From assembly GCA_021325275.1 (NCBI GenBank), contig JAJPHL010000035.1, positions 54,916 through 118,915 on the forward strand: DNA of 64,000 nucleotides. Direction: 5' to 3'. Below, in pieces: positions 762 to 48,522 of this stretch. Origin of the DNA: Terriglobia bacterium (lineage in GTDB: Bacteria; Acidobacteriota; Terriglobia; JAJPHL01). Both the position numbers and the translations under genes were made by a program. The stretch's first letter is position 1; each line of letters begins with the position of its first letter. The notes under the pieces are model-generated. The model did not search any database and was not told where the DNA came from. It was given only the letters and a program-made list of their open reading frames with translations.

Positions 762-2066
762 TCAAGCTTGTTTCGAACGCTCCAACGCTTGTAACGCCAA
801 TCCGCGAGCTACCGACGTGAACTCGTTGCCCGAGCGCAATCGCGCGACGCCGAAGCGCGACTCGAAAATCCGCCGCACCGCGGGCACAAACGACGAGCCG
901 CCGGTCAGGAACACCATGTTCACGTCCTTCGCGTTCACGCGCGCCGACTTCAGGAGGGCGTCGACACAACTTTCCACCAAGTGCAATTCCTCGGCGATCC
1001 AACTCTCAAACGACGAGCGCTTCACGTTCGCTTCAATCTCGATGGGACCATCGGCAAACTGGAAAACCGCCGCCGGACCACTCGACAAATCGCACTTCAC
1101 TTTCTGCACCGCGCGATGCAGGTGATATCCCAGGTCGTTGCGGATCAGATACCTCAACGCGGCGATCTTCCGCGGTTCCACGGCGTAACGATGCAACTCG
1201 TCGAGCATGTTCATTACCTCGCGGCCCTTCAGCAGCGAGAGATGATGCCAGCGCTCCAGTCGCGAGTAAATCCACGTCGGCACCGGCATCATTTTTTCGA
1301 GCGAACGATATTCGGATCCCGCGCCTAGCGCCGGCGACACAAGGTGACGCACCAACTTCGCGTCGAAGGCATCGCCGGCCACGCCGACGCCCGCGTTGCC
1401 CAGCAAATCCGCAGCGGAGCGGCCGCGTTTGCGGATGGTGGGTCCTACGTGGATCAGCGAAAAATCGCTCGTGCCGCCGCCGAAATCGCCGATCAGGATC
1501 AACTCATCGTGATCGAGCGTGGACTCGTAGAAATGTGCGGCCGCCACCGGCTCCATTTCAAAATCCACCGACTCGAAGCCGGCTTGACGGAACGATTCGC
1601 GCAAGCGCGCTTCGGCGTAGGCGTTGTCGTCCGCGTTTTCCGCGCCCACGAATTGCACCGGACGGCCCACGACTGCCGCGCGGATTGCCTCGCCGAATTG
1701 CACTTCCGATTTTTGGCGTAATTCACGCAGAATGCGCGCGATCAGTTCTTCGAGTTTGCGGCGGCGTCCAAAAACGTCGGTGGTCGTGAGGGTGCGACTG
1801 CTTAAGAACGACTTCAGCGATTGAATCAAGCGGCCCTTCGTGTCGGCCGCCAGATATTGCTCGATGCCCTCGGGGCCGCTCCACGACTTCACGCTATTCG
1901 CGCCGTGTTCTTTGATTTTCTCGAGATAAAGAAGCGATCGATACGCGTCCGTGACGCCGCCGAACGACGGGAACTCGGCCATTTGGACGCGGCCATTCGA
2001 GTCGACGCACGCGACGGAGCTATTGGTGGTGCCGAAGTCGATGCCGAACGCGGAAGTTTTCGTCAT
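762..2066 (-). CDS. Hsp70-family protein (YegD/StbA-like actin-fold ATPase)
   Basis: Phosphate-1 motif GIDFGTTNSSVA at the N-terminus, GDFGGGTSDFSL, and a C-terminal LTGGSSFVPAV. The length (434 aa) and the lack of a substrate-binding-domain lid fit the YegD-type Hsp70 homologs. Confidence 0.8.
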   Translation of the reverse strand: MTKTSAFGIDFGTTNSSVACVDSNGRVQMAEFPSFGGVTDAYRSLLYLEKIKEHGANSVKSWSGPEGIEQYLAADTKGRLIQSLKSFLSSRTLTTTDVFGRRRKLEELIARILRELRQKSEVQFGEAIRAAVVGRPVQFVGAENADDNAYAEARLRESFRQAGFESVDFEMEPVAAAHFYESTLDHDELILIGDFGGGTSDFSLIHVGPTIRKRGRSAADLLGNAGVGVAGDAFDAKLVRHLVSPALGAGSEYRSLEKMMPVPTWIYSRLERWHHLSLLKGREVMNMLDELHRYAVEPRKIAALRYLIRNDLGYHLHRAVQKVKCDLSSGPAAVFQFADGPIEIEANVKRSSFESWIAEELHLVESCVDALLKSARVNAKDVNMVFLTGGSSFVPAVRRIFESRFGVARLRSGNEFTSVARGLALQALERSKQA

Positions 2067-3572
2067 TTAGCGCGCGATGTCCGCCCAATCGCGATCGTAA
2101 TATCGCACCAGCACTTGATCGTTCAGGCGATTCGCTTCCGCTTGCACCGGGCGCATGTCCGTCGGAAAATCGAAAAGCTCGCGCAAACCCGCGACCGTTA
2201 GAAATCGCAGGCCCGGCGGCAAGGACTCAGGCGGCGCGTAGACACCGCGCTCCTCTGCGCTCGCGATCATGTAACCCCATTCGCCGAACGACGGCACGTA
2301 CACGTGATACGGATACGCGCGCAGGCCCGCTTGTTTCAAGGTCTCCGCGATGCACCAATACGATTGCCGCGCGAAAAGCGGCGACGTGCTTTGGATCACC
2401 GCCAAGCCGTTGTGTGTGAGATGACGGCCCATCAAACGATAAAACGCCGTGGTGTACAACTTCCCCAACGAGTAATTCGTGGGATCGGGAAAATCCACCA
2501 CGATGAAATCGTAGTAATCGCTGTGATCTCCGAGCCACACAAAGGCATCAGCGTTGATCACGTGAACTTTCGGCGAGAGCAGCGAGCCGCCATTCAACTG
2601 CTTCAAATACGGATGCGTGGAAAACAGGTGCGTCATCTCGGGATCGAGATCCACCAGCGTGATGCTCTCAAGATTCGGATAGCGCAGCAGCTCGCGGACC
2701 GCCAAGCCGTCGCCGCCGCCGAGCACCAGCACGCGGCGCGCACCGGGGACGGCGGAGAGTCCCGGATGCACCAACGCTTCGTGATAGCGATACTCATCGC
2801 GTGAGCTGAATTGCAGATGGCCGCTGAGGAAAAGGCGCACGTCGTCTTTCCATCGCGTTAGGACAATGCGCTGATACGGCGTGGCGCGAGAGAAAATCAC
2901 TTCATCGGAGTAGAGCGAATTGTCAGCCGCCGACGAAATGCGGTCGGCGAACACCGTACCGGCGCCGAGCATCGCCAAGACCACCGCGCATGACGCACGT
3001 AGGCCGCCGGTGTGACCAATCTGGTCTTTAAAGATAAACGTCGACCACAACGCGACGGCCGCGTTGACGATCCCGAACGCCAGCGCCGCGCGCACCAAGC
3101 CCATTTTCGGCACGAGCCACACGGGAAACAACAGCGACGCGCCGAGCGCGCCGAGATAGTCGAACGTCAACACGTGCGCGACCACGTCCTTGAAGTTGAA
3201 TCGATCGCGAAGAATGCGCATCAGCAGCGGGATTTCCAATCCCACCAAAGCGCCGATGCCGATCACCAGCGCGTACAGCGCCAGGCGAAACGCCTGCGTA
3301 TACGCGAACGCCAGAAACATGATCGACGACGAAAATCCGCCGAGCAATCCCACCATCAGCTCGACGGCGATGAATCGTGCGACTAATCCGCGCGCGATGA
3401 AGCGCGACATGCCGCTGCCGATACCCATCGCGAACAGGTAGCAGCCGATGACGGTGGAAAATTGGAAGATGCTGTCGCCGAGGAGATAGCTCGCCAACGT
3501 GCCGGCGATCAGCTCATAGACCAAGCCGCACGCAGCGATCAGAAAAACCGATACGAAGAGAACGATAGGCAT
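2067..3572 (-). CDS. Polyamine aminopropyltransferase (spermidine synthase-like) fused to an N-terminal multi-TM membrane domain
   Basis: The C-terminal half has the spermidine synthase signature VLVLGGGDGLAVRELLRYP...VDLDPEM...FDFIVVDFPDP...LNGGSLLSPKVHV. The N-terminal ~230 aa form about 7 hydrophobic helices. Start placed at MPIVLFVS (3572); the track ORF extends to 3770 only by reading through the upstream REP palindrome. Confidence 0.8.
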   Translation of the reverse strand: MPIVLFVSVFLIAACGLVYELIAGTLASYLLGDSIFQFSTVIGCYLFAMGIGSGMSRFIARGLVARFIAVELMVGLLGGFSSSIMFLAFAYTQAFRLALYALVIGIGALVGLEIPLLMRILRDRFNFKDVVAHVLTFDYLGALGASLLFPVWLVPKMGLVRAALAFGIVNAAVALWSTFIFKDQIGHTGGLRASCAVVLAMLGAGTVFADRISSAADNSLYSDEVIFSRATPYQRIVLTRWKDDVRLFLSGHLQFSSRDEYRYHEALVHPGLSAVPGARRVLVLGGGDGLAVRELLRYPNLESITLVDLDPEMTHLFSTHPYLKQLNGGSLLSPKVHVINADAFVWLGDHSDYYDFIVVDFPDPTNYSLGKLYTTAFYRLMGRHLTHNGLAVIQSTSPLFARQSYWCIAETLKQAGLRAYPYHVYVPSFGEWGYMIASAEERGVYAPPESLPPGLRFLTVAGLRELFDFPTDMRPVQAEANRLNDQVLVRYYDRDWADIAR

Positions 3573-3586
3573 GAGGACCGGAAAAA

Positions 3587-3672
3587 GCAACCGCAGATGA
3601 ACGCAGATAAACGCAGATGGAGATGCAAGGTTTGGTCTTATCGGCGTCCATCTGCGTTCATCTGCGGTTGCT
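3587..3672. repeat. REP-like long palindromic element, family A copy 1 (arms GCAACCGCAGATGAACGCAGATAAACGCAGATGG / CCATCTGCGTTCATCTGCGGTTGC)
   Basis: Near-perfect inverted repeat around a ~25-nt loop. The same element recurs at 33316-33392 and 38621-38700. It lies in the intergenic gap between the DUF350 and speE-like genes. Confidence 0.8.
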
Positions 3673-3681
3673 TTTCTTGTT

Positions 3682-3900
3682 TTAGTGTACCGACGCGGCG
3701 ATGATGATGCACATTCCCAGCGACATCGCGCCGAGCAGAATCGCCAGCGCCAGGTTCTTCTCCACCACAATCTCCTTCCAGAGATGATACGGCGTGATCT
3801 TGTCGATGATCACGAACGCCGCGAAGAAAATCGCGATGCCTAGGAACGAGTAGATCGCCGCGTTCAGCAGATTGCCGGCCATGGAATTGGGATTCGGCAT
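3682..3900 (-). CDS. DUF350-family small membrane protein (YjfL-like, 2 TM helices)
   Basis: 72 aa with two hydrophobic helices (AIYSFLGIAIFFAAFVII / LALAILLGAMSLGMCIIIAA). Resemblance to E. coli YjfL-type proteins, and it sits inside a polyamine/SPFH module. Confidence 0.55.
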   Translation of the reverse strand: MPNPNSMAGNLLNAAIYSFLGIAIFFAAFVIIDKITPYHLWKEIVVEKNLALAILLGAMSLGMCIIIAASVH

Positions 3901-3903
3901 AGT

Positions 3904-4089
3904 CTATTTCCCTCCGATGTAACGAAAGTAACTGGCGAAGTGCGAGCGATACGCGCCGGGATTATCGCGCACCGTGTTCGGCACGTCTTTCAGCTCGTTC
4001 ACCTTGTTCAGGCTCCAGCCGCGATATTGCGCCGTGCCCGCGAGCAAGAGCGTCAGCAGTCCGTACGCGAGATACAAAGGATGTCGCAT
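3904..4089 (-). CDS. Small hypothetical membrane protein (61 aa, one N-terminal TM helix)
   Basis: Reading frame is tightly packed between the neighbouring genes with 4-nt spacing to each. N-terminal hydrophobic helix LYLAYGLLTLLLAGTA. No family recognised. Confidence 0.4.
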   Translation of the reverse strand: MRHPLYLAYGLLTLLLAGTAQYRGWSLNKVNELKDVPNTVRDNPGAYRSHFASYFRYIGGK

Positions 4090-5453
4090 CAGTCGTCATC
4101 TCCTGAAGAAGAAAACACGCTGGCTGCGCCGCGGCCCGAGTAATCGCTCTCCATCCAGCGATGTCCTTCGAACGCCGCCGAGCGCCATTGCACAATGATA
4201 GGCGGAATCAGCAGTGCGAAGAAAGCGAGAAGGAAAAACGTGAGATTGGGCACGTCGCGGCGCAAGCGCAGATGATAGTGCAAATCGTAGGCGGCGTCGG
4301 GCGTTTCCGGCTCCACGCGCAAGTAGTAGCGGCCCGGCGGCACCGAGGGAATCGTGGCGGTGTCGCTCTTGCTTCCCTCCGAACCGTCGGAATCGGTGTA
4401 GTAGCTGACCTCGCGTCCGAAGTCGTACGCCTTGTTGTTGTCCTGATCGATCAGCGCGAAATTGAAGTATGCCCAGTTGTTGTAGATGTCGGTGTCGAGG
4501 TTCAACTCCACGTTCGACGTGCGTCCGGTCAGTTCAAATGGTTCGGTGACGAACGAGGGCTCGCCCGCGCCGCGGCGGAACGAGTAGTCGTGCGAGAAAA
4601 TTTCCTTGTTCGACGAAAGCGCAATGGAGCCGATAGCCGCCACGAGCAGTGCCAACAGCAGCAATCCGAAACTTCCCCAAATTCCTTTGGCGCGCGCCGC
4701 GTAGGGATTCGGTTGATCCGCGAAGATACCGGCGGGCGGCGGCAATCGCGGAATCTTGAACGCTTGTTCGATCTCCGAGGCGGCCATGTACGTGCTCAGC
4801 GACCACGTGATTTCCTCCGCGCCTGCTTCGGCGGTGGTGGCTTCCGAGGACAACATGTGCGGCGGCGCGATGTAATCGCGAACCTCGGCGACGTCGCCGG
4901 AGTGCACTTCCCACGGAAATTCGCCGACCACGAAGGTGGTCTGTGCTTGCGCCGTTTGGAAATGCGTGTAGGTTTCGCCTTGCAGGATCACCGCGGGCTT
5001 GCCCATGTGACTCGATCCCAGGGGAAGCGCCTGCACCGTGCGCACGAAATTCCAGTGACCTTGATAGTGCGTCAGGTAGCGGAATCCCTGATACGGATTG
5101 AACAGCAGATGCTCGCTCCAGGAGTACGCCACGCCGTCCACTTCGATGGTGCGCACTTGCGCGCCGATCACTTCCCAAATTTGCCCGGCCATTCGCCCGC
5201 GGCTGCCGAGCGGTACGAGCGGCTGAAAGCGCATCTTGCTTTCGAATTGCGAGAGGACTTGGTAGTTTTCGTCCTTCGCGTCGAGGACGGAATGGCAACT
5301 GTCGCAGACGATGGACAAGCTGTGTCCGGCGGCGCGCATCGTGAGCGACGCGCCGCAGTTCGGGCAATTCAGCGCGCGCGTGAGTGCCACAGCTCCGGAT
5401 GGTCCGCCGGGCCCATCCAGCCGCACGTCGGCTTTTGATTCGCCCGTTGGCAT
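4089..5453 (-). CDS. DUF4178-family protein (YdjH-like) with N-terminal CxxC...CxxC zinc ribbon, a central TM helix and a C-terminal extension
   Basis: Zinc ribbon LNCPNCGASL...IVCDSCHSVLD followed by the DUF4178-like beta-rich region (QIWEVIGAQVRTIEVDGVAYSWSEHLLFNP), and a TM helix GSFGLLLLALLVAAIGSIAL. Confidence 0.6.
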   Translation of the reverse strand: MPTGESKADVRLDGPGGPSGAVALTRALNCPNCGASLTMRAAGHSLSIVCDSCHSVLDAKDENYQVLSQFESKMRFQPLVPLGSRGRMAGQIWEVIGAQVRTIEVDGVAYSWSEHLLFNPYQGFRYLTHYQGHWNFVRTVQALPLGSSHMGKPAVILQGETYTHFQTAQAQTTFVVGEFPWEVHSGDVAEVRDYIAPPHMLSSEATTAEAGAEEITWSLSTYMAASEIEQAFKIPRLPPPAGIFADQPNPYAARAKGIWGSFGLLLLALLVAAIGSIALSSNKEIFSHDYSFRRGAGEPSFVTEPFELTGRTSNVELNLDTDIYNNWAYFNFALIDQDNNKAYDFGREVSYYTDSDGSEGSKSDTATIPSVPPGRYYLRVEPETPDAAYDLHYHLRLRRDVPNLTFFLLAFFALLIPPIIVQWRSAAFEGHRWMESDYSGRGAASVFSSSGDDD

Positions 5454-5460
5454 CAGTTCG

Positions 5461-6096
5461 TCACCATTTTTCGAACAACCGAACGTTCTTCAACTGCAAC
5501 GCATCGTACTCGATCGATTCGCCGACGAAGAGCAGCGGTGTCGATTCGCTGTAGTCGATGGTGGCGAAATGCGCGTCGGGCGACTTCAAATCCGCAAACG
5601 TCACTTTCGATTTGTCCCAGTATTCGAACGGCAATTCACCTTGCACTCCGGCGTAGTTCGCCACCGTGATTGTCGTCACCGAGTATTGTTGATTGAACCA
5701 AGCGAACGTTTGCATCGGCTGGAGATTGCCGGCGGGCGGCAGCGGACTCGGCGGCGCGTGCTGAAAGGAAATCGCGAAGTCGAGTTGCGCATCCGAAAGC
5801 CAACCAGACGTCCCGTCGTTGAACGCGAGATGCCACTCATTCCATCCGCCGCGCTCGTATTCATAAATAATTCGGCCGACGACCACGAATGCTTTTTGCC
5901 GGTAGACTCCCTCGGCGCCGATCTGGATCGGCGACGCGTCGAGGGGAAGATCGGCGATTTCGCCGACCTTTTGCCAATTCACATCGCGACGCACGATGAT
6001 CGATTTGCAGTAAGGGCAAGTGGTCTGCACCGCCGCCGACCAAAGGAATTCCACCGGCGCGCCGCAGTTCGGGCAATTGGCCGTTTTCGCGGGCAT
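5461..6096 (-). CDS. DUF4178-family protein (second, shorter paralog) with N-terminal zinc ribbon
   Basis: Start at MPAKTANCPNCGAP (6096). Zinc ribbon ANCPNCGAP...TCPYCKS, then a DUF4178-like region (FVVVGRIIYEYERGGWNEWHLAFNDGTSGWL). The track ORF extends to 6318 through a frame without a convincing start. Confidence 0.6.
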   Translation of the reverse strand: MPAKTANCPNCGAPVEFLWSAAVQTTCPYCKSIIVRRDVNWQKVGEIADLPLDASPIQIGAEGVYRQKAFVVVGRIIYEYERGGWNEWHLAFNDGTSGWLSDAQLDFAISFQHAPPSPLPPAGNLQPMQTFAWFNQQYSVTTITVANYAGVQGELPFEYWDKSKVTFADLKSPDAHFATIDYSESTPLLFVGESIEYDALQLKNVRLFEKW

Positions 6097-6101
6097 ACGT
6101 G

Positions 6102-6449
6102 TTACGGTTCGTACGGACGATCGACGTGGCGCACGCGCACATCGGCGGCGGCCACGGCGTCGCGCAAGGCCGCGGTAAAATCGCCTTCCGGCCGCGGCTT
6201 GCAGCAAAAAAGATTCAGGCACAGTGTGCCGTACTCGGGAAACGTGTGGCACGCGAGATGCGATTCCGCGAGCAGCCACAGTCCGGTGATGCCGCCGGGT
6301 CCCGCGAAGCGATGCCACGTGGCGTCTTCAATGGGATGCAGCGACATTTCTTCCACGATGCGGCGAAAGAGCGCTTGCATGCGCGCGAGATCGCACAACG
6401 CCGCAGGATCGCAGCCGTACGCTTCAATGATCCATTCGCATCCGCTCAT
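6102..6449 (-). CDS. speH: S-adenosylmethionine decarboxylase proenzyme, pyruvoyl-dependent (SpeH/SpeD class 1)
   Basis: 115 aa with the self-processing motif LLAESHLACHTFPE; the E|S cleavage site generates the pyruvoyl group. The YGC...L..L motif near the N-terminus is typical of small archaeal/bacterial AdoMetDC. Confidence 0.8.
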   Translation of the reverse strand: MSGCEWIIEAYGCDPAALCDLARMQALFRRIVEEMSLHPIEDATWHRFAGPGGITGLWLLAESHLACHTFPEYGTLCLNLFCCKPRPEGDFTAALRDAVAAADVRVRHVDRPYEP

Positions 6450-6476
6450 CGCGCCTTGATTTTAGCCTGCTTTAAC

Positions 6477-7505
6477 CTAACCCTGAGCTGCCCCGCACTC
6501 CGGACAGAATTTCGACTTGCGTGGAATCGGCTTGCCGCACTCCATGCAGAATTTCGTTTCCGCACTCGCCGCCGAGCCGCCACCGCTTGGCGCGACCGGC
6601 GGTGCCGCTCCCGCGGGCGCCGTGGGTGCGCTTCCTCCGCCATCCGGCGGATGAATCGCTTGCATCATCGTTTGCGCCATCGCGAGTCCCGCGCCCAATC
6701 CCGCGCCGATGCCCGCCGCGCCTCCGCCTTCGTTCGCCGCGGCGATCGGCATCGATTGCGCCACTTGAAATTGCGTGTACTTGCCCATGTCGCCGACCAT
6801 GCGCATGCCGATGCCTTCGTCGAGGCGCTTCTGCAACTCTTCCGGCAGTGAAAGATTCTCCACGACAAACGTGTCGAGCGCCAAACCCATTTCCTGCATC
6901 CACGGCTTCAGTTGCTCGGCGATTTTCTGGGCCACCAGTCCTTGATTCGCGGCCATGTCGAGGAACGGCACATTGGATCCGCCGAACGCGTCGGTCATCT
7001 TGGCGACGATCGTGTTGCGAAGCTGACCTTCCAGATCGGCCACGCTGTAGGTGTCGCGTGTGCCGCTGACTTTGGTATGAAACGTCCGCGCGTCGGCGAT
7101 TTTGTAGGAGTAAATGCCGAAAGCGCGCACGCGCACCGCGCCAAAATCCTTGTCGCGGATGGTGATGGGCTGCTGCGTGCCCCAGTGCTGATTCGTTTGC
7201 AAGCGCGTGGAGAAGAAGTACACGTCCGTCTTGAACGGCGACTTGAACATCTTGTCCCAATTCATCAAGTCGGTGAGGATGGGCATGTTTTGCGTGGTGA
7301 GTTTGTATGTTCCCGGCCCGTACACATCGGCCATGCGGCCTTCGTTCACCAGCGCCGCCACTTCCGACTCGCGCACGATCAGCATGCCGCCGTTCTGGAT
7401 TTCCATATCCTCCACAGGGAAGCGCCAGGCAAGCACGCCCTCGGTCGCTTCGGTCCACTGAAGAATGTCGATGAATTGTTTCTTGAGGAAATCCTTGATG
7501 GACAT
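6477..7505 (-). CDS. SPFH/band-7 family protein (PF13421-like, YdjI-like) with C-terminal Cys4 zinc ribbon
   Basis: N-terminus MSIKDFLKKQFIDILQWTE...VLAWRFP is characteristic of Band_7_1 SPFH proteins. Gly/Ala-rich linker, then CMECGKPIPRKSKFCPECG. Confidence 0.7.
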   Translation of the reverse strand: MSIKDFLKKQFIDILQWTEATEGVLAWRFPVEDMEIQNGGMLIVRESEVAALVNEGRMADVYGPGTYKLTTQNMPILTDLMNWDKMFKSPFKTDVYFFSTRLQTNQHWGTQQPITIRDKDFGAVRVRAFGIYSYKIADARTFHTKVSGTRDTYSVADLEGQLRNTIVAKMTDAFGGSNVPFLDMAANQGLVAQKIAEQLKPWMQEMGLALDTFVVENLSLPEELQKRLDEGIGMRMVGDMGKYTQFQVAQSMPIAAANEGGGAAGIGAGLGAGLAMAQTMMQAIHPPDGGGSAPTAPAGAAPPVAPSGGGSAASAETKFCMECGKPIPRKSKFCPECGAAQG

Positions 7506-7573
7506 GACGGCCTCCAAGGGCAGTATATACCGCCCGGTTTCAGTTACCGATGTCTGTTACGGAGGCGCGACGG

Positions 7574-8854
7574 TTAAAGTTCCGTGGCCACATCAACCTT
7601 GAAACGGCCTTTGCTGACATGCACATCGAGGCGATCGCCCGGCTGAACCTGCGAGGGATCGCGCACCAAGCTGCCGTCGGCGCCGGCCACGAGCGCATAT
7701 CCGCGATCGAGTACGGCTTGCGGTCCAAGCTGCTGCAACGCGGCGGCGGATAGGGTGAGGCGCGAGCGTTCACGCTCCAAACGCAGATGCACAGCGTGGC
7801 GCAATCGCGTAGCGAGATCGGCGGCACGCACACTTCCAGCATGCAGTCTTTGGCGGACATCTTGGCGCATCAGGCGGCGGTCCAGTTCGTCCACCGCGCG
7901 CCAGAACCTTTGCACGCGATACGCGGCCGCTTTTTCCAGCGCGAGACGCAGCGAGTCGATGCGGCGATGCAGATCCACTTTGCTTGCGATCACGAGTTCC
8001 GCGGCGGCCGAGGGCGTCGGCGCGCGGAAGTCCGAGACAAAATCGGCGATGGTGAAATCGGTCTCGTGGCCGATGGCGGAAATCACCGGGATGCGCGACG
8101 CCACGATGGCGCGCGCGATCGCTTCTTCGTTAAATGTCCAGAGATCTTCGAGAGATCCGCCGCCGCGCGCCAGAATAATCACGTCGACCTCGCCGCGAAG
8201 CTGCCGGTCTCCCGGCAAACTAAAGTATTTCAACGCTTGGACGATTTGCTCCACCGCGCCTTCGCCCTGCACGCGCACCGGATAAAGGAGCAAGTGCAGA
8301 TTCTCGAATCGCCGCTGGAGAATCGTGATCATGTCGGCGATCGCCGCGCCCGAGGGTGAGGTGATGAGTCCGATGCGTTGCGGCAGCGCGGGAATCGGCC
8401 GCTTGCGCGATTGTTCAAACAGTCCTTCTTTGGCGAGACGTTGCTTGAGTTGCTCGAACGCCAATTGCAGCGCGCCGAATCCGGCGGGCTCCATATGTTC
8501 GACAATGATTTGGTATTCGCCGCGCTGCTCGTAGACCGTGAGGCGTCCGCGCGCGGTGACGCGCAGGCCGTCGGCCGGCTTCAGCCGCGAGAGTCGCAGG
8601 GAACTGCGGAACATGACGGCGCGAAGCTGCGCCGTGTGATCCTTCAATGTGAAGTAACAGTGTCCGGACGCGGCGGACTTGAGTCCCGAGATTTCGCCTT
8701 CCACCCAAACGTCGGCGAACTCGCCCTCCAGCGCGTCTTTGATCGCTTGCGTGAGGTCGGCGACGGTGTAGATGGAGCGCAATTTGGAGTGCGGCGACTT
8801 GTCGCCGCTTTGGATGCCCGCGGCTTGACGCGGGCCGGGGTGCAAGCAGTTCAA
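7574..8854 (-). CDS. xseA: Exodeoxyribonuclease VII large subunit
   Basis: OB-fold N-terminus (IYTVADLTQAIKDALEGEFADVWVEGEISGLK), catalytic region RGGGSLEDLWTFNEE, coiled-coil C-terminus. Confidence 0.85.
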   Translation of the reverse strand: MNCLHPGPRQAAGIQSGDKSPHSKLRSIYTVADLTQAIKDALEGEFADVWVEGEISGLKSAASGHCYFTLKDHTAQLRAVMFRSSLRLSRLKPADGLRVTARGRLTVYEQRGEYQIIVEHMEPAGFGALQLAFEQLKQRLAKEGLFEQSRKRPIPALPQRIGLITSPSGAAIADMITILQRRFENLHLLLYPVRVQGEGAVEQIVQALKYFSLPGDRQLRGEVDVIILARGGGSLEDLWTFNEEAIARAIVASRIPVISAIGHETDFTIADFVSDFRAPTPSAAAELVIASKVDLHRRIDSLRLALEKAAAYRVQRFWRAVDELDRRLMRQDVRQRLHAGSVRAADLATRLRHAVHLRLERERSRLTLSAAALQQLGPQAVLDRGYALVAGADGSLVRDPSQVQPGDRLDVHVSKGRFKVDVATEL

Positions 8855-33315: not shown

Positions 33316-33392
33316 AGCAACCGCCGATGAACGCAGATAAACGCAGATGAAGCATCGGTTTTATCCGCGTTCATCTGCGTTCATCTGCGGTT
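33316..33392. repeat. REP-like palindromic element, family A copy 2
   Basis: GCAACCGCCGATGAACGCAGATAAACGCAGATGAAGC ... GCGTTCATCTGCGTTCATCTGCGGTTG. Lies between the convergent esterase and degP genes. Confidence 0.8.
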
Positions 33393-37051: not shown

Positions 37052-38701
37052 TTAGTGGGAAGCGGTGCGCGCGGGGCCGTACAGCACCTTTCCAGGACGC
37101 GCGGCCGTAACCGTTTTCCCGTCGAAAACCACTTCGCCGTTCACGATCACGGTGGAAAAGCCTTCGGCATATTGGTGCGGCTTGTCGAACGTGGCGAGAT
37201 CGCGCACACGGTCGGGATCGAAGACCGCGATGTCAGCCTTCATGCCTTCGCGCAACAATCCACGATCCGCCAATCCGAGGCGCTGCGCGGGAAGCGTGGT
37301 CATGCGCCGCACTGCGTCTTCCAGGGTGATCACTTTCTTCTCGCGCACGTACACGCCCAACACGCGGGCCCACGTTCCGTAGCTCCGGGGATGCGGCGCT
37401 TCTTTGCCGAAATTCGGAATTTCGCCGTCGGAGGCGATCATCGTGCCCGGATAACGCAGAATTCGCACCAGATCGTCTTCACTGATGGCGTGAAAAACGC
37501 CTTGGCAGCCGCCTTTCTCGACGATCCACAGCGCGGCCTCGGCGGCATTCTCGACCGTCGGGGAATTTCCGCGAAGTTGGGCGACCTCCGCTAAATTCTT
37601 TCCCGCGAGTGACGTATCCCAGTCGCAGCGCGACAACACTACGTTCTTGGGATCGCCGCCGCCGCGTTCTTCGCGAATCAAGCGCGCCGCTTCCGTTGCG
37701 ATTCGGGCGCGCGTCGCCTGATCCTTCAGGCGTTCGAGGACGCGCGCGCGTCCGCCTTCTTGCGCCCATGACGGAAACAGCGCCGCCTGAATGCTGGTGC
37801 TCGACGCCGTGTACGGATACTGATCCACAGACGCGTCCACGCCGCGGCGTCGCGCTTCTTCGATCAAGCGAATCGTCTCCGCGCTCTGTCCCCAGTACGT
37901 CTTGCCGATGATCTTGTGATGCGTCACTTGCGTCGGTAATCCGCCGTTCTCGCCGATGGCAATGGTTTCCTTGACGCTATCGACCACGTGCGACGCTTCG
38001 TCGCGCATATGAGAAATATAAATCCCGCCAAAACGTCCGGCCACGCGCGCGAGATCCGTGACTTCCTCGGTTGAGCTGAAACTCCCCGGCACGTAGAACA
38101 ATCCCGAGCTGAGACCGAACGCGCCGTCCTTCATTCCCTGCTCGACAAGCGCGCGCATTTGGGCCATTTCCTCGGGCGACGGCTTGCGGTCAACTTGGCC
38201 CATCACGGCTTCGCGCACCGAGCCTTGGCCGAGGAACGCGCCGATGTTCACGGATTTTCGCAACGCCTCGAGCTGCGCGAAGAACGGGGCGATCGGCACG
38301 GGTGAACTACCGTCGGGTCCTTCGATCAGCGTGGTGACACCTTGGCGAATGTAATTGTCAGCGGTGGGAACGTTGAAAATGTTGCGGCGCGCGTGACTGT
38401 GGATGTCGATGAATCCCGGCGCGACGACTTCGCTGTGTACGTCGATGGTTTGCCGCGCCGGTTCGTCGATCTTGTAGGCGATCCGCGCGATGCGGTCGCC
38501 GCGAATCGCAACGTCGGCGTGATACCAAGGATTCCCGCTGCCGTCGATGACACGCGCGTTCTTCAGCAGCAGATCATATGGTTGCGCTTGCGCGAACAAG
38601 ATGCAGGAAAAAAGAAAAATGCAACCGCAGATAAACGCGGATAAACGCAGATGGGCGATTGGTTTATGTCTGCGTTCGTCTGCGTTCATCTGCGGTTGCA
38701 T
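37052..38701 (-). CDS. D-aminoacylase / N-acyl-D-amino-acid deacylase (amidohydrolase superfamily), secreted
   Basis: LLKNARVIDGSG...ADVAIRGDRIARI, metal site GFIDIHSH, catalytic region ISHMRDE. The first ~27 codons of the track ORF are encoded by REP copy 3 and are probably not translated; the true start is likely a non-ATG codon before the signal peptide IFLFSCILFAQA (~38620). Confidence 0.8.
   Translation of the reverse strand: MQPQMNADERRHKPIAHLRLSAFICGCIFLFSCILFAQAQPYDLLLKNARVIDGSGNPWYHADVAIRGDRIARIAYKIDEPARQTIDVHSEVVAPGFIDIHSHARRNIFNVPTADNYIRQGVTTLIEGPDGSSPVPIAPFFAQLEALRKSVNIGAFLGQGSVREAVMGQVDRKPSPEEMAQMRALVEQGMKDGAFGLSSGLFYVPGSFSSTEEVTDLARVAGRFGGIYISHMRDEASHVVDSVKETIAIGENGGLPTQVTHHKIIGKTYWGQSAETIRLIEEARRRGVDASVDQYPYTASSTSIQAALFPSWAQEGGRARVLERLKDQATRARIATEAARLIREERGGGDPKNVVLSRCDWDTSLAGKNLAEVAQLRGNSPTVENAAEAALWIVEKGGCQGVFHAISEDDLVRILRYPGTMIASDGEIPNFGKEAPHPRSYGTWARVLGVYVREKKVITLEDAVRRMTTLPAQRLGLADRGLLREGMKADIAVFDPDRVRDLATFDKPHQYAEGFSTVIVNGEVVFDGKTVTAARPGKVLYGPARTASH
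38621..38700. repeat. REP-like palindromic element, family A copy 3
   Basis: GCAACCGCAGATAAACGCGGATAAACGCAGATGG ... TCTGCGTTCGTCTGCGTTCATCTGCGGTTGC. Lies between pepA and the D-aminoacylase gene, same strand. Confidence 0.8.
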
Positions 38702-46375: not shown

Positions 46376-46503
46376 GTTTTCTCTGCGCCTCTGCGTCTCT
46401 GCGGTGAAAGAACCGCTCGTGGGTGAAATCCTCGTGGGACACGGGCGTAACGACAGGCCTCAGGGGTTTTTCACCGCAGAGACGCAGAGACGCAGAGAAA
46501 ACC
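46376..46503. repeat. REP-like palindromic element, family B (arms GGTTTTCTCTGCGCCTCTGCGTCTCTGCGGTGAAA / TTTCACCGCAGAGACGCAGAGACGCAGAGAAAACC, ~57-nt loop)
   Basis: 35-nt near-perfect inverted arms. The unit CGCAGAGA x3 echoes the CGCAGATn x3 of family A. The loop carries a CTCGTGGG x2 direct repeat. Lies between GDE and aguB, about 58 nt upstream of the aguB start. Confidence 0.75.
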
Positions 46504-46560
46504 TGTTCGGACTCCGCCCGCGATCTGCACAACGCCAGATTCGCGATAAACTATCGAGCG

Positions 46561-47466
46561 ATGCCGCAATCTCGAAACGTCACGGTTGGCGCGATTCAGA
46601 TGAGCATGTCCCGGGATGTGCGCGAAAACTTGCGCAAAGCCGCAGATCTCGTCGCCGAAGCCGCGAAGCGCGGCGCGCAAATCGTCTGCCTACCGGAACT
46701 TTTCGGATCGCAATACTTTTGCCAGATCGAAGACGGCGCGCACTTCGACCTCGCCGAGCCGCTCTCCGGCCCGACGACCGAAACCATGTCGCGCGTTGCG
46801 AAACAAGCCGGCGTCGTTCTCGTGGTTCCGTTCTTCGAGCGCCGTGCCGCCGGCGTTTATCACAACAGCGCCGTGATTCTGGAACGCGACGGCTCCATCG
46901 CCGGGCATTATCGCAAAATGCACATTCCCGACGATCCGTCGTACTACGAAAAGTTTTATTTCACACCCGGCGATCTCGGTTTTCGGGCCATCGACACTTC
47001 GGTGGGGCGCGTCGGCGTGTTGATTTGCTGGGATCAGTGGTATCCGGAAGGGGCGCGGCTCACGGCGCTGCAAGGCGCGGAGATTTTGTTTTACCCCACG
47101 GCGATCGGGTGCTTGCCGATGGATCGCGGCGAGTACGGCGACGCGCAACGCGACGCCTGGCGCACGATTCAGCGAAGCCATGCCATCGCGAACGGTGTGT
47201 TCGTGGCCGCCGTAAATCGCGTGGGGCATGAGACGCCGAATGCGACGTCGCCCGGCATCGACTTTTGGGGATCGTCGTTCCTCTGCGATCCCATCGGCGC
47301 CGTCCTACAGCACGCCGGCGAGAAAGAGCAAATCCTCATCGCCGAATGCGATTTGAATCGCGTGGAAACGATCCGCCGCGATTGGCCTTTCCTGCGCGAT
47401 CGCCGCATCGACGCGTACGGCGGAATCACCGAGCGTTTCATCGATGCGCCACAGGGAGAGCGATAG
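46561..47466 (+). CDS. aguB: N-carbamoylputrescine amidase (CN-hydrolase family)
   Basis: VTVGAIQMSMS...QIVCLPELF (Glu), RKMHIPD (Lys), LICWDQWYPE (Cys) catalytic triad; about 300 aa. Confidence 0.85.
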   Translation: MPQSRNVTVGAIQMSMSRDVRENLRKAADLVAEAAKRGAQIVCLPELFGSQYFCQIEDGAHFDLAEPLSGPTTETMSRVAKQAGVVLVVPFFERRAAGVYHNSAVILERDGSIAGHYRKMHIPDDPSYYEKFYFTPGDLGFRAIDTSVGRVGVLICWDQWYPEGARLTALQGAEILFYPTAIGCLPMDRGEYGDAQRDAWRTIQRSHAIANGVFVAAVNRVGHETPNATSPGIDFWGSSFLCDPIGAVLQHAGEKEQILIAECDLNRVETIRRDWPFLRDRRIDAYGGITERFIDAPQGER

Positions 47467-48522
47467 TTGACGCCGTTCGAACTGGGATTCCGCTTCCCCG
47501 CCGAATGGACGCCGCACGCCGCCACTTGGATCGGCTGGCCGCACAACGAATCCGATTGGCCCAAACGATTTGAAAAAATCCCGGCCGTGTACGTCGAGAT
47601 CGTGCGGGGACTGGTGCGCGGCGGCGAGAACGTCAACATTCTCGTGAACTCGGCAGCGCACGAACAAGGAGCCGTGACGCTGCTCGCGCTGGGGGGCGTC
47701 GACATCTCAACGGTGAGATTCTTCCGGTGGCCGACAAATCGCGGATGGCTGCGTGACTTTGGGGCGATTTGCGTGCGGAACGGGAAAACGGGGGAAGTCG
47801 CACCGATTCGTTTTCGCTTCAACGCCTGGGCCCGCTACGACGATTACGAGCTCGACGATGCGGCCGGCGCGGAAATCGTGAAGACAATCGGCGGGCGAGT
47901 CTTCACCGCCAATCTCGACGGACGCGATGTTGTCCTCGAAGGCGGCGGCATCGACGCCAACGGTCTCGGCACACTGCTCACGACGGAAGAATGGCTGCTC
48001 GATCCCAAGACGCAAGTGCGCAATCCCGGCTTCACGCGCCGCGATTACGAACAGCTCTTCCACGATTACCTCGGCGCAACCAACGTTCTGTGGCTCGGCA
48101 AAGGCGTCGCCGGGGACGACACGCATGGTCACGTGGACGACATCTGCCGCTTTGTGAACGAGAAAACCGTGGTCCTGGCGATGGAATACGATTCCAGCGA
48201 CGAGAACTACCGGCCGCTGCAAGAAAATCGCGAGCGCGCGCGCGGCTTCCGCACCGAGTCCGGTGAAAAAATTGAAGTGGTGGAACTGCCGCTTCCCTCC
48301 GCGATCACGCAGGACGACGAACGCTTCCCGGCGAGCTACGCGAATTTCTACATCGCGAATTCCGCCGTGCTCGTGCCGGCGTTCGATCATCCCAACGACG
48401 CGAAAGCGCTCGGCATCCTCAGTGAATTATTCACCGGCCGCACGATCATCCCGATCGCCGCGGAAGATTTAGTGCTCGGCAACGGCACACTCCACTGCTT
48501 GAGTCACGAACAGCCGCGTTAA
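47467..48522 (+). CDS. aguA: Agmatine deiminase (agmatine iminohydrolase, PAD-porphyromonas-type family)
   Basis: FRFPAEWTPHAATWIGWPHN, HVDD, C-terminal GNGTLHCLSHEQP (catalytic Cys). Apparent TTG start directly after the aguB stop. Confidence 0.85.
   Translation: MTPFELGFRFPAEWTPHAATWIGWPHNESDWPKRFEKIPAVYVEIVRGLVRGGENVNILVNSAAHEQGAVTLLALGGVDISTVRFFRWPTNRGWLRDFGAICVRNGKTGEVAPIRFRFNAWARYDDYELDDAAGAEIVKTIGGRVFTANLDGRDVVLEGGGIDANGLGTLLTTEEWLLDPKTQVRNPGFTRRDYEQLFHDYLGATNVLWLGKGVAGDDTHGHVDDICRFVNEKTVVLAMEYDSSDENYRPLQENRERARGFRTESGEKIEVVELPLPSAITQDDERFPASYANFYIANSAVLVPAFDHPNDAKALGILSELFTGRTIIPIAAEDLVLGNGTLHCLSHEQPR

Follow-up and report, generated by a model that had tools for sequence, protein, structure and literature searches.

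The window analysed here is a stretch of 64,000 nucleotides from a Terriglobia bacterium (Acidobacteriota; assembly GCA_021325275.1, contig JAJPHL010000035.1, positions 54,916 to 118,915), and the system under study is a module of seven open reading frames (ORFs) that lie on its minus strand in the region 2067-7517 and are read from 7505 to 2067. In order of reading, the module encodes an SPFH/Band_7_1 protein of 342 aa (6477-7505; PF13421, PF13240), a class 1b pyruvoyl S-adenosylmethionine decarboxylase (AdoMetDC) homologue of 115 aa (6102-6449; PF02675), a soluble DUF4178 protein of 211 aa, hereafter DUF4178a (5461-6096; PF13785), a second DUF4178 protein of 454 aa with two transmembrane (TM) segments, hereafter DUF4178b (4089-5453; PF13785), a small protein of 61 aa without a Pfam family (3904-4089), a half-length DUF350 (YjfL-family) protein of 72 aa with two TM helices (3682-3900; PF03994) and a membrane-anchored polyamine aminopropyltransferase (APT) of 501 aa (2067-3572; NF002956/PRK03612, PF01564). 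These seven packed genes are a genuine operon, kept in hundreds of soil bacteria, and probably serve aminopropylation at the cell envelope.

An earlier note on this DNA, made from the letters alone, had described seven co-directional genes separated by gaps or overlaps of 1-30 nt. All seven ORFs are present on the minus strand, and the intergenic distances from the SPFH gene to the APT gene are 27, 5, 7, -1, 3 and 109 nt, followed by 0 nt to a downstream Hsp70-like gene; the spacing claim holds for the other junctions and fails between DUF350 and APT, because that gap measures 109 nt. The start of the SPFH gene was placed at the ATG at position 7505, which has a GGAGG upstream and replaces a TTG at 7517, while the starts of DUF4178a (6096, 211 aa) and of the APT (3572, 501 aa) agree with public gene calls and with orthologues; the 285-aa and 567-aa versions of these two ORFs, taken from a mechanical ORF list, were dropped on the basis of orthologue length. 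The module region of the window is identical to contig JBAIFZ010001681.1 of the metagenome-assembled genome (MAG) GCA_037024795.1, in which the gene calls agree. Pfam profile searches upheld all of the family assignments of the earlier note (SPFH, AdoMetDC, two DUF4178, DUF350 and spermidine synthase), whereas NCBIfam gave no name to the SPFH, DUF4178, DUF350 or small proteins.

The unit extends well beyond this genome. At least 1822 relatives of DUF4178b were found in the protein collection, and at least 594 genomes, in a scan that took one per species, carry this marker gene. The best 80 loci, fetched through DUF4178b alone, were searched with the window's own proteins, and 66 of them carry the full set of seven genes with order and strand unchanged, most of the others being broken by contig ends. 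The loci belong mainly to Acidobacteriota (Bryobacterales, Terriglobales, one Vicinamibacteria and the cultured Occallatibacter savannae), together with four Gemmatimonadota MAGs; furthermore, the same seven-gene order, with an additional oxidase gene, is found on plasmid 1 of the cultured Gemmatirosa kalamazoonensis. In Novosphingobium sp. THN1 (Alphaproteobacteria) the order is SPFH, DUF4178a, DUF4178b, small protein, DUF350, APT, oxidase and AdoMetDC, the last gene having moved to the end, and in Ralstonia solanacearum (Betaproteobacteria) one cluster holds DUF350, an SPFH-SHOCT protein, a DUF4178 pair fused into one protein, a small protein of 61 aa and speD, while the membrane-APT gene lies at a distance of 5 kb. 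Plasmid MCP49-600 of Alteromonas mediterranea carries a variant assemblage (L087:7935-14593), namely a membrane-APT, speD, a hypothetical protein, a TelA-like protein, DUF4178, another hypothetical protein of 510 aa and a DUF350 protein of 289 aa. On plasmids, DUF4178 and the membrane APT are carried by almost identical sets of genera. The earlier note had taken a lack of synteny outside this genome as the sign that the adjacency was incidental; since both colinear loci and complete records carry the module, re-ordered in Novosphingobium and Ralstonia, the seven genes make up a conserved unit and their adjacency is not incidental. Four loci on MAG contigs labelled Rhodospirillales, Betaproteobacteria, Patescibacteria and Saccharimonadales (L004, L042, L057 and L067) were not counted as phylum breadth, mis-binning of such oddly labelled contigs being likely because their proteins are as similar to those of the window as the Acidobacteriota ones are. 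A further locus labelled Methylomirabilota (L068) is likewise as similar to the window's module as the Acidobacteriota loci and is probably mis-binned too.

The enzymatic core of the module consists of the AdoMetDC homologue and the APT. The former matches PF02675 with an E-value of 7e-24 (84.7 bits), and its alignment to the T. maritima structure 1TLU retains the E62-S63 self-cleavage site, H68 and C83 (ESH..H..C), of which S63, H68 and C83 are AdoMetDC processing or catalytic residues (PMC10407285). The self-processing pyruvoyl enzyme with an ESH motif announced by the earlier note is consistent with this E-S/H/C site. The APT matches the Spermine_synth family (PF01564) with an E-value of 1.9e-35 and, along its full length, the model NF002956/PRK03612 (677.2 bits for a cut-off of 472, model positions 19-520 of 522), while it remains under the cut-off of the "fused MFS/spermidine synthase" model NF037959 (26.7 bits for a cut-off of 40). 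The best relatives of its catalytic domain in the PDB are 7xif, the Thermus thermophilus SpeE 1uir and the plant thermospermine synthase 6bq2 (1e-31 to 1e-28), the Escherichia coli and human spermidine synthases matching more weakly (1e-22 to 1e-19). The GGGDG motif (G285-G289), D310, D342, the DFPDP loop (D360, D363) and the YHE motif are invariant in 20 homologues of 73-90% identity, and the catalytic and donor-binding residues are kept in a divergent set down to 33% identity. GGGDG, D310, D342, D360 and D363 also have counterparts in the alignment to solved APTs. The APT is the module's most conserved gene, with 64-77% identity among loci. As judged from these alignments, the APT retains every motif for catalysis and for binding of decarboxylated S-adenosylmethionine (dcAdoMet), and the AdoMetDC homologue retains the residues that self-processing and decarboxylation require.

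The membrane domain of about seven TM segments that the earlier note saw fused to the catalytic domain is predicted as seven long helices within residues 2-207, on the basis of hydropathy averaged over 67 orthologues and of the helices of an AlphaFold2 (AF2) model. Four acidic residues, E20, E71, E113 and D138, lie inside these helices and are retained across phyla, as far as the 33%-identical Alteromonas protein. Lysine and arginine together number 9.4 on the face that holds loops 2-3, 4-5 and 6-7 and 3.5 on the opposite face, a bias found in 67/67 orthologues and in all divergent members; the N-termini of the Tritonibacter and Alteromonas proteins are also rich in arginine, and the 20 residues that follow TM7 have a net charge of -2.9. 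Because of this bias, the positive-inside rule would place the N-terminus in the cytoplasm and the catalytic domain outside it. A catalytic domain facing the periplasm is treated here as a lead and not as a result, since simple methods alone stand behind the topology.

The SPFH protein (Band_7_1, PF13421, E-value 1.8e-73, 247 bits) ends in a Cys4 zinc ribbon, CxxC-x10-CxxC (Zn_Ribbon_1, PF13240, 28.1 bits for a cut-off of 25), contains a Gly/Ala-rich low-complexity stretch and has no TM segment by hydropathy (maximum KD(17) of 1.29). It fits the pattern of YdjI-type proteins, that is a Band_7_1 domain without TM anchor, a low-complexity linker and a C-terminal Cys4 ribbon, and its orthologues are 56-71% identical and occupy the first module position in at least 70 loci. 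DUF4178a and DUF4178b match PF13785 (E-value 1e-15, 58.5 bits, and 1.8e-17, 64.2 bits, respectively, for a cut-off of 25), both carry an N-terminal CxxC..CxxC ribbon and they are paralogues of each other (E-value 1e-8). They are fused into proteins of about 637 aa in other genomes (P0005, P0006, P0029, P0034, P0046, P0065, P0067 and others), and the Ralstonia fusion, at 482 aa, is without TM segments and without the periplasmic part. In the structural model of DUF4178b (pLDDT 80), the order is a zinc ribbon, a DUF4178 beta domain, a TM helix, a beta-sandwich of about 120 aa, a second TM helix and a tail with a conserved RWxESDY motif. The ribbon and the DUF4178 domain were placed in the cytoplasm because they are zinc-binding, and the beta-sandwich is predicted to be periplasmic and similar to PPC/collagen-binding domains. 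The DUF350 protein (PF03994, E-value 2.6e-14, 53.9 bits for a cut-off of 26) covers profile positions 2-65 of 133 only, and its TM helices, at residues 14-32 and 50-68, make up half of the full unit of four TM helices; the equivalent Ralstonia cluster encodes a full-length DUF350 protein of 132 aa.

The 61-aa protein has no family match in Pfam or NCBIfam. Its ORF is nevertheless a real gene, because it is present at its slot in 78 of the 80 loci (43-74% identity), and its family is narrow, comprising 289 clusters, and 118 representatives in a set of 1.84 billion proteins. In the N-terminus, a single basic residue is accompanied by some 15 residues of moderate hydrophobicity (KD(17) of 1.51), and a small-x-Ala sequence stands just before a conserved (Q)YRGW, with Ala at position -1 in 127/163 sequences and G, A, S or T at -3 in 143/163. 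This arrangement follows the pattern of a cleavable Sec signal, and the protein, which the earlier note had called a TM protein, looks more like an exported, signal-peptide-bearing peptide with a predicted mature length of about 41 aa. Its tail, VRDNPGxYRSHY..RYIGGK, is highly conserved, and the family ends in Lys in 198 of 207 sequences, in Gly-Lys in 190 and in GGK in 172. Small proteins occupy the same operon slot elsewhere (L083:8780-8965; L085:~7530-7673, compared with 3904-4089 on the minus strand here); those of Ralstonia and Novosphingobium end in GGHK and SHK, respectively, and show no detectable sequence similarity to the window's protein.

Clustering of the flanks of the 80 loci revealed a further conserved gene, absent from the account of the earlier note, which in 63 loci (L015:16747-18357 and 62 others) comes immediately after the APT gene in the same orientation and of which copies also lie at L084:12591-14051 and L085:9519-11057. 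Its product of about 520 aa has an FAD/NAD(P)-binding N-terminus, and the solved proteins that are nearest to it, by this N-terminus alone, are amine oxidases, L-amino-acid oxidases and the polyamine oxidase Fms1. An RRxF-hydrophobic motif occurs in 52 of 58 orthologues, about 21 residues ahead of the conserved mature part, and reads as a predicted export signal of the twin-arginine translocation (Tat) type.

Operons of this kind have already been published. Clusters of AdoMetDC, a fusion of a membrane protein with a spermidine-synthase-like domain, and DUF350 were reportedly described by Li, Kurihara, Kim, Liang and Michael in 2019 (Biochem J 476:2579), who are said to have proposed an acceptor other than putrescine. 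The window module has in common with these clusters an apparently functional class 1b AdoMetDC, an APT with an N-terminal polytopic membrane domain and DUF350, and differs in that its APT matches PRK03612 (677 bits) and not NF037959. Membrane-APT fusions of this type are described as not involved in spermidine or spermine synthesis (PMC12803844). Ravi et al. (2024) reported operons of a 7TM-spermidine-synthase-like protein, DUF350 and DUF4178 with PspA-CesT/Tir, such as Shewanella AAN56744-7, which includes a lipoprotein, as well as band-7 operon variants with AdoMetDC and a polyamine oxidase, and proposed that they monitor polyamines or "aminopropylation of other substrates" (PMC11237479). 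The four components AdoMetDC, 7TM-APT, DUF350 and DUF4178 are all co-encoded in the window module and kept across lineages. The module resembles the operons of Ravi et al. in its 7TM-APT, DUF350 and DUF4178 proteins, in a variable slot for membrane dynamics and, for the band-7 variants, in AdoMetDC and in the oxidase, which is missing from the window copy. In contrast, it is devoid of PspA, CesT/Tir and the Ctha_1186 lipoprotein, its band-7 protein carries a zinc ribbon instead of the 2TM and SHOCT of the published variant (a SHOCT is present in the Ralstonia counterpart), it has two DUF4178 paralogues, one with a predicted periplasmic beta-sandwich, its DUF350 protein has two TM helices instead of four or eight, and its 61-aa peptide goes unmentioned in that work. 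In the Alteromonas cluster, a TelA-like "toxic anion resistance protein" fills the membrane-stress slot in place of SPFH or PspA.

The envelope-stress operons cited in the earlier note offer partial parallels. In Bacillus subtilis, YdjI is a soluble SPFH protein with a stretch of low complexity and a C-terminal zinc finger that needs YdjG and YdjH for its recruitment to the membrane (PMC8581546), YdjH being a TPM-domain protein and YdjG being composed of zinc ribbons, an uncharacterized domain and a TM segment (PMC11237479), with an N-terminus that begins MIISYKCPNC (from a primer, PMC8581546). In the pspA-ydjGHI (samGHI) operon, the CxxC-ribbon membrane protein YdjG adjoins the SPFH gene, and the window's DUF4178 proteins are likened to it by architecture alone; the label "YdjH-like" that they had received gives way to YdjG as the closer match. 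The B. subtilis operon has no polyamine enzymes, whereas the window module has neither PspA nor a TPM-domain YdjH; indeed, PspA_IM30 and TPM gave no Pfam match among the seven or eight products, and no such gene occurs in the conserved flanks. The yjfIJKLMC operon of E. coli similarly places the DUF350 protein YjfL beside a polyamine-related enzyme homologue and the PspA-family protein YjfJ, but that enzyme is a glutathionylspermidine-synthetase-like ATP-grasp ligase and not an APT, and AdoMetDC, DUF4178 and SPFH are absent. The window module shares only DUF350 with it, the set of ATP-grasp ligase, YjfJ, DUF2170, DUF2491 and DUF1190 that characterises the E. coli operon not being found. In Pseudomonas aeruginosa, PA4773-PA4775 comprise speD/speE paralogues that are controlled by PmrAB and provide surface polyamine (cited in PMC11107197, refs 40 and 52). 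The likeness lies in a second, dedicated AdoMetDC/APT pair that serves the envelope and not the bulk polyamine supply. The PA4773-PA4775 system is only a functional analogue, its enzymes presumably being soluble and without DUF4178, DUF350 or SPFH partners. Literature searches on Rv2597-Rv2601 and on SPFH with AdoMetDC found nothing relevant. The earlier note had stated that nothing was known of the function of this combination: this stands for the function, but the combination itself was already in Li 2019 and Ravi 2024. What appears to be new is the association of a band-7-Zn-ribbon protein, two DUF4178 proteins (one with a predicted periplasmic domain), a half DUF350 and a Gly-Lys peptide, which is absent from the literature examined, with Li et al. 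2019 outside the comparison.

The surroundings of the module in the window are less conserved. Upstream, sucC, sucD, ndk and xseA lie on the same strand, and downstream are a gene for an Hsp70/YegD-like actin-fold ATPase (762-2066, minus strand) and a tRNA-Asn. The Hsp70-like product matches Pfam HSP70 with an E-value of 6.8e-25 and PRK11678 with 212 bits, below the cut-off of 331; its gene abuts the APT stop codon and occupies the slot that the oxidase gene holds in 63 of 80 relatives. It is probably co-transcribed with the module here, and it was dropped as an operon member, as were xseA and ndk, these genes standing next to the module in contigs of this genome alone. The 109-nt gap between DUF350 and APT, for which orthologous loci have a median of 15 nt, contains a palindromic repeat element (3583-3675, without assigned strand) with arms of 36 nt and a spacer of 21 nt, built from CGCAGAT(G/A)AA decamers. 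Three copies are present in the window, the others at 33322-33389 and 38626-38694 (13 matches for 0.33 expected). On the mRNA, the element would form a hairpin of -63 kcal/mol (z = -10.4) followed by a U-run, and for this reason it may attenuate or stabilise transcripts. Elsewhere in the window, aguB (CN_hydrolase; TIGR03381 with 315 bits, below the cut-off) and aguA (PAD_porph, agmatine deiminase) make up a unit of two genes (46423-48522, plus strand), flanked by glycogen-debranching-like and sulfite/nitrite-reductase-like genes that were named from their translations alone. The earlier note had proposed aguBA as the putrescine supplier of the module; the pair lies 39 kb away on the opposite strand and is not among the module's conserved neighbours, and this link was dropped as the two are unlinked.

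Taken as a whole, the module is read here, with moderate confidence, as a widespread, self-contained, envelope-associated aminopropylation operon. The AdoMetDC would produce dcAdoMet in the cytoplasm, and the membrane APT would use it to aminopropylate, at the membrane, an amine other than free cytoplasmic putrescine. The outer face of the membrane would be favoured because four elements predicted to be extracytoplasmic co-occur, namely the transferase domain, the beta-sandwich of DUF4178b, the small peptide and the Tat oxidase. The Zn-ribbon DUF4178 pair could recruit the soluble SPFH-Zn-ribbon protein to the membrane, as YdjG and YdjH recruit YdjI in B. subtilis; together they would form a scaffold and sensor on the cytoplasmic face, DUF4178b reporting via its periplasmic beta-sandwich, while DUF350 and the small exported peptide would be accessory membrane or periplasmic components. 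In most relatives, the Tat-exported flavin oxidase could act on the product in the periplasm, either for its turnover or as an "eraser", the gene being missing here. The likely physiological role of such a system is an adjustment of the envelope under stress. The proposal of the earlier note, aminopropylation of a membrane-proximal and possibly non-polyamine acceptor in connection with an SPFH scaffold, agrees in this respect with published hypotheses (PMC11237479; PMC12803844).

Several observations weigh against this reading. The AdoMetDC homologue scores 62.7 bits against the equivalog TIGR03330, below the cut-off of 75.65, and SpeD homologues may be arginine or ornithine decarboxylases (PMC10407285); with a score below that cut-off, AdoMet as the substrate is inferred from context, that is from linkage to the APT only. 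Four or five related loci (L005, L019, L028, L032 and, with less downstream DNA, L081) keep the genes from SPFH through DUF350 and have no adjacent APT gene in the downstream DNA that was fetched (about 1 kb in L081 and at least 2.9 kb in the four others), so that in these genomes the APT is elsewhere or lost. The count of seven helices in the APT comes from hydropathy and from an AF2 model of low confidence (20 close homologues, pLDDT 55.7). A domain facing outwards is also at odds with a donor that arises in the cytoplasm; it would require the export of dcAdoMet, for which we know of no precedent. The oxidase-like protein resembles amine oxidases in its FAD-binding N-terminus only, and no copy of its gene is present within the 64-kb window. 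Finally, a scan for promoters and terminators was uninformative (one promoter-like site for 2.7 expected).

The main rival is the synthesis and export of a polyamine for surface protection, a doubtful yet real possibility, in which a cytoplasmic APT would act on putrescine, agmatine or spermidine, the seven-helix domain and DUF350 would export the product, this product would stabilise the outer membrane like the spermidine/norspermidine of PA4773-PA4775, and the oxidase would recycle the surplus. The intact catalytic domain, whose closest solved relatives are APTs of broad specificity (T. thermophilus SpeE and thermospermine synthase), the conserved acidic residues within the membrane, which suit the transport of a polycation, the amine-oxidase-like periplasmic partner of the relatives, the ability of the genome to make putrescine via aguBA and the P. 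aeruginosa precedent (cited in PMC11107197) are all in keeping with it. However, such fusions were found to be uninvolved in spermidine or spermine synthesis (Li et al. 2019, per PMC12803844), the charge bias would put the APT domain outside, and neither the exported Gly-Lys peptide nor the two DUF4178 proteins would be explained. A more radical form of the aminopropylation reading, which is rather unlikely, has the APT working extracytoplasmically, its seven-helix domain, with the four conserved acidic residues within the membrane, passing the dicationic dcAdoMet to a site that faces the periplasm, where the acceptor would be an amine on the envelope side, possibly that of the Gly-Lys peptide. 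The most specific candidate acceptor would then be the epsilon-amine of the terminal Lys of the ~41-aa peptide, or else a lipid head-group or a cell-wall amine, and the Tat flavin oxidase of most relatives could remove or convert the aminopropyl mark.

Two other explanations have far less in their favour. The APT-like domain could be a sensor of dcAdoMet or polyamines instead of an enzyme, the module being purely an envelope-stress signalling complex; the association with an SPFH scaffold, the PspA-type theme and the lack of detected activity of homologous fusions in E. coli (PMC12803844) would suit such a role, which is nonetheless very unlikely given that catalytic and donor residues are invariant in the 20-sequence alignment and kept to 33% identity, and that nearly all loci also encode an enzyme dedicated to making the donor. 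The least probable reading is that of a housekeeping spermidine operon (speH-speE) set amid unrelated membrane-protein genes: AdoMetDC and APT are the canonical spermidine pair and public annotation names the APT "spermidine synthase" or "polyamine aminopropyltransferase", but the colinearity of the 66 loci and the shuffled co-occurrence in Alpha- and Betaproteobacteria, the position of the two genes, which are not neighbours in the module, the fusion to a membrane domain and the literature on such fusions (PMC12803844) all speak against it.

In thousands of bacteria, dcAdoMet is made and a membrane-fused APT is present, yet there is no spermidine, and the question of the target dates from 2019. 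The window contains a very widespread soil-bacterial version of this system, found in at least 594 species genomes, which brings several handles to the question: partners that form a fixed set, an oxidase that is exported, a small exported peptide with an invariant terminal Lys, a catalytic domain that is predicted to face outwards and cultured hosts. The module is indeed present in Occallatibacter savannae, Gemmatirosa kalamazoonensis, Novosphingobium sp. THN1 and Ralstonia solanacearum, the last of which is genetically tractable. If the extracytoplasmic reading were true, the APT would be the first extracytoplasmic dcAdoMet-dependent transferase and, with the peptide as acceptor, aminopropylation of a protein lysine would be seen for the first time, in a bacterial counterpart to deoxyhypusine chemistry. 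Should an envelope component or a lysine in a peptide be the acceptor, the operon would carry out a new envelope modification tied to the membrane-stress machinery of the SPFH/PspA type.

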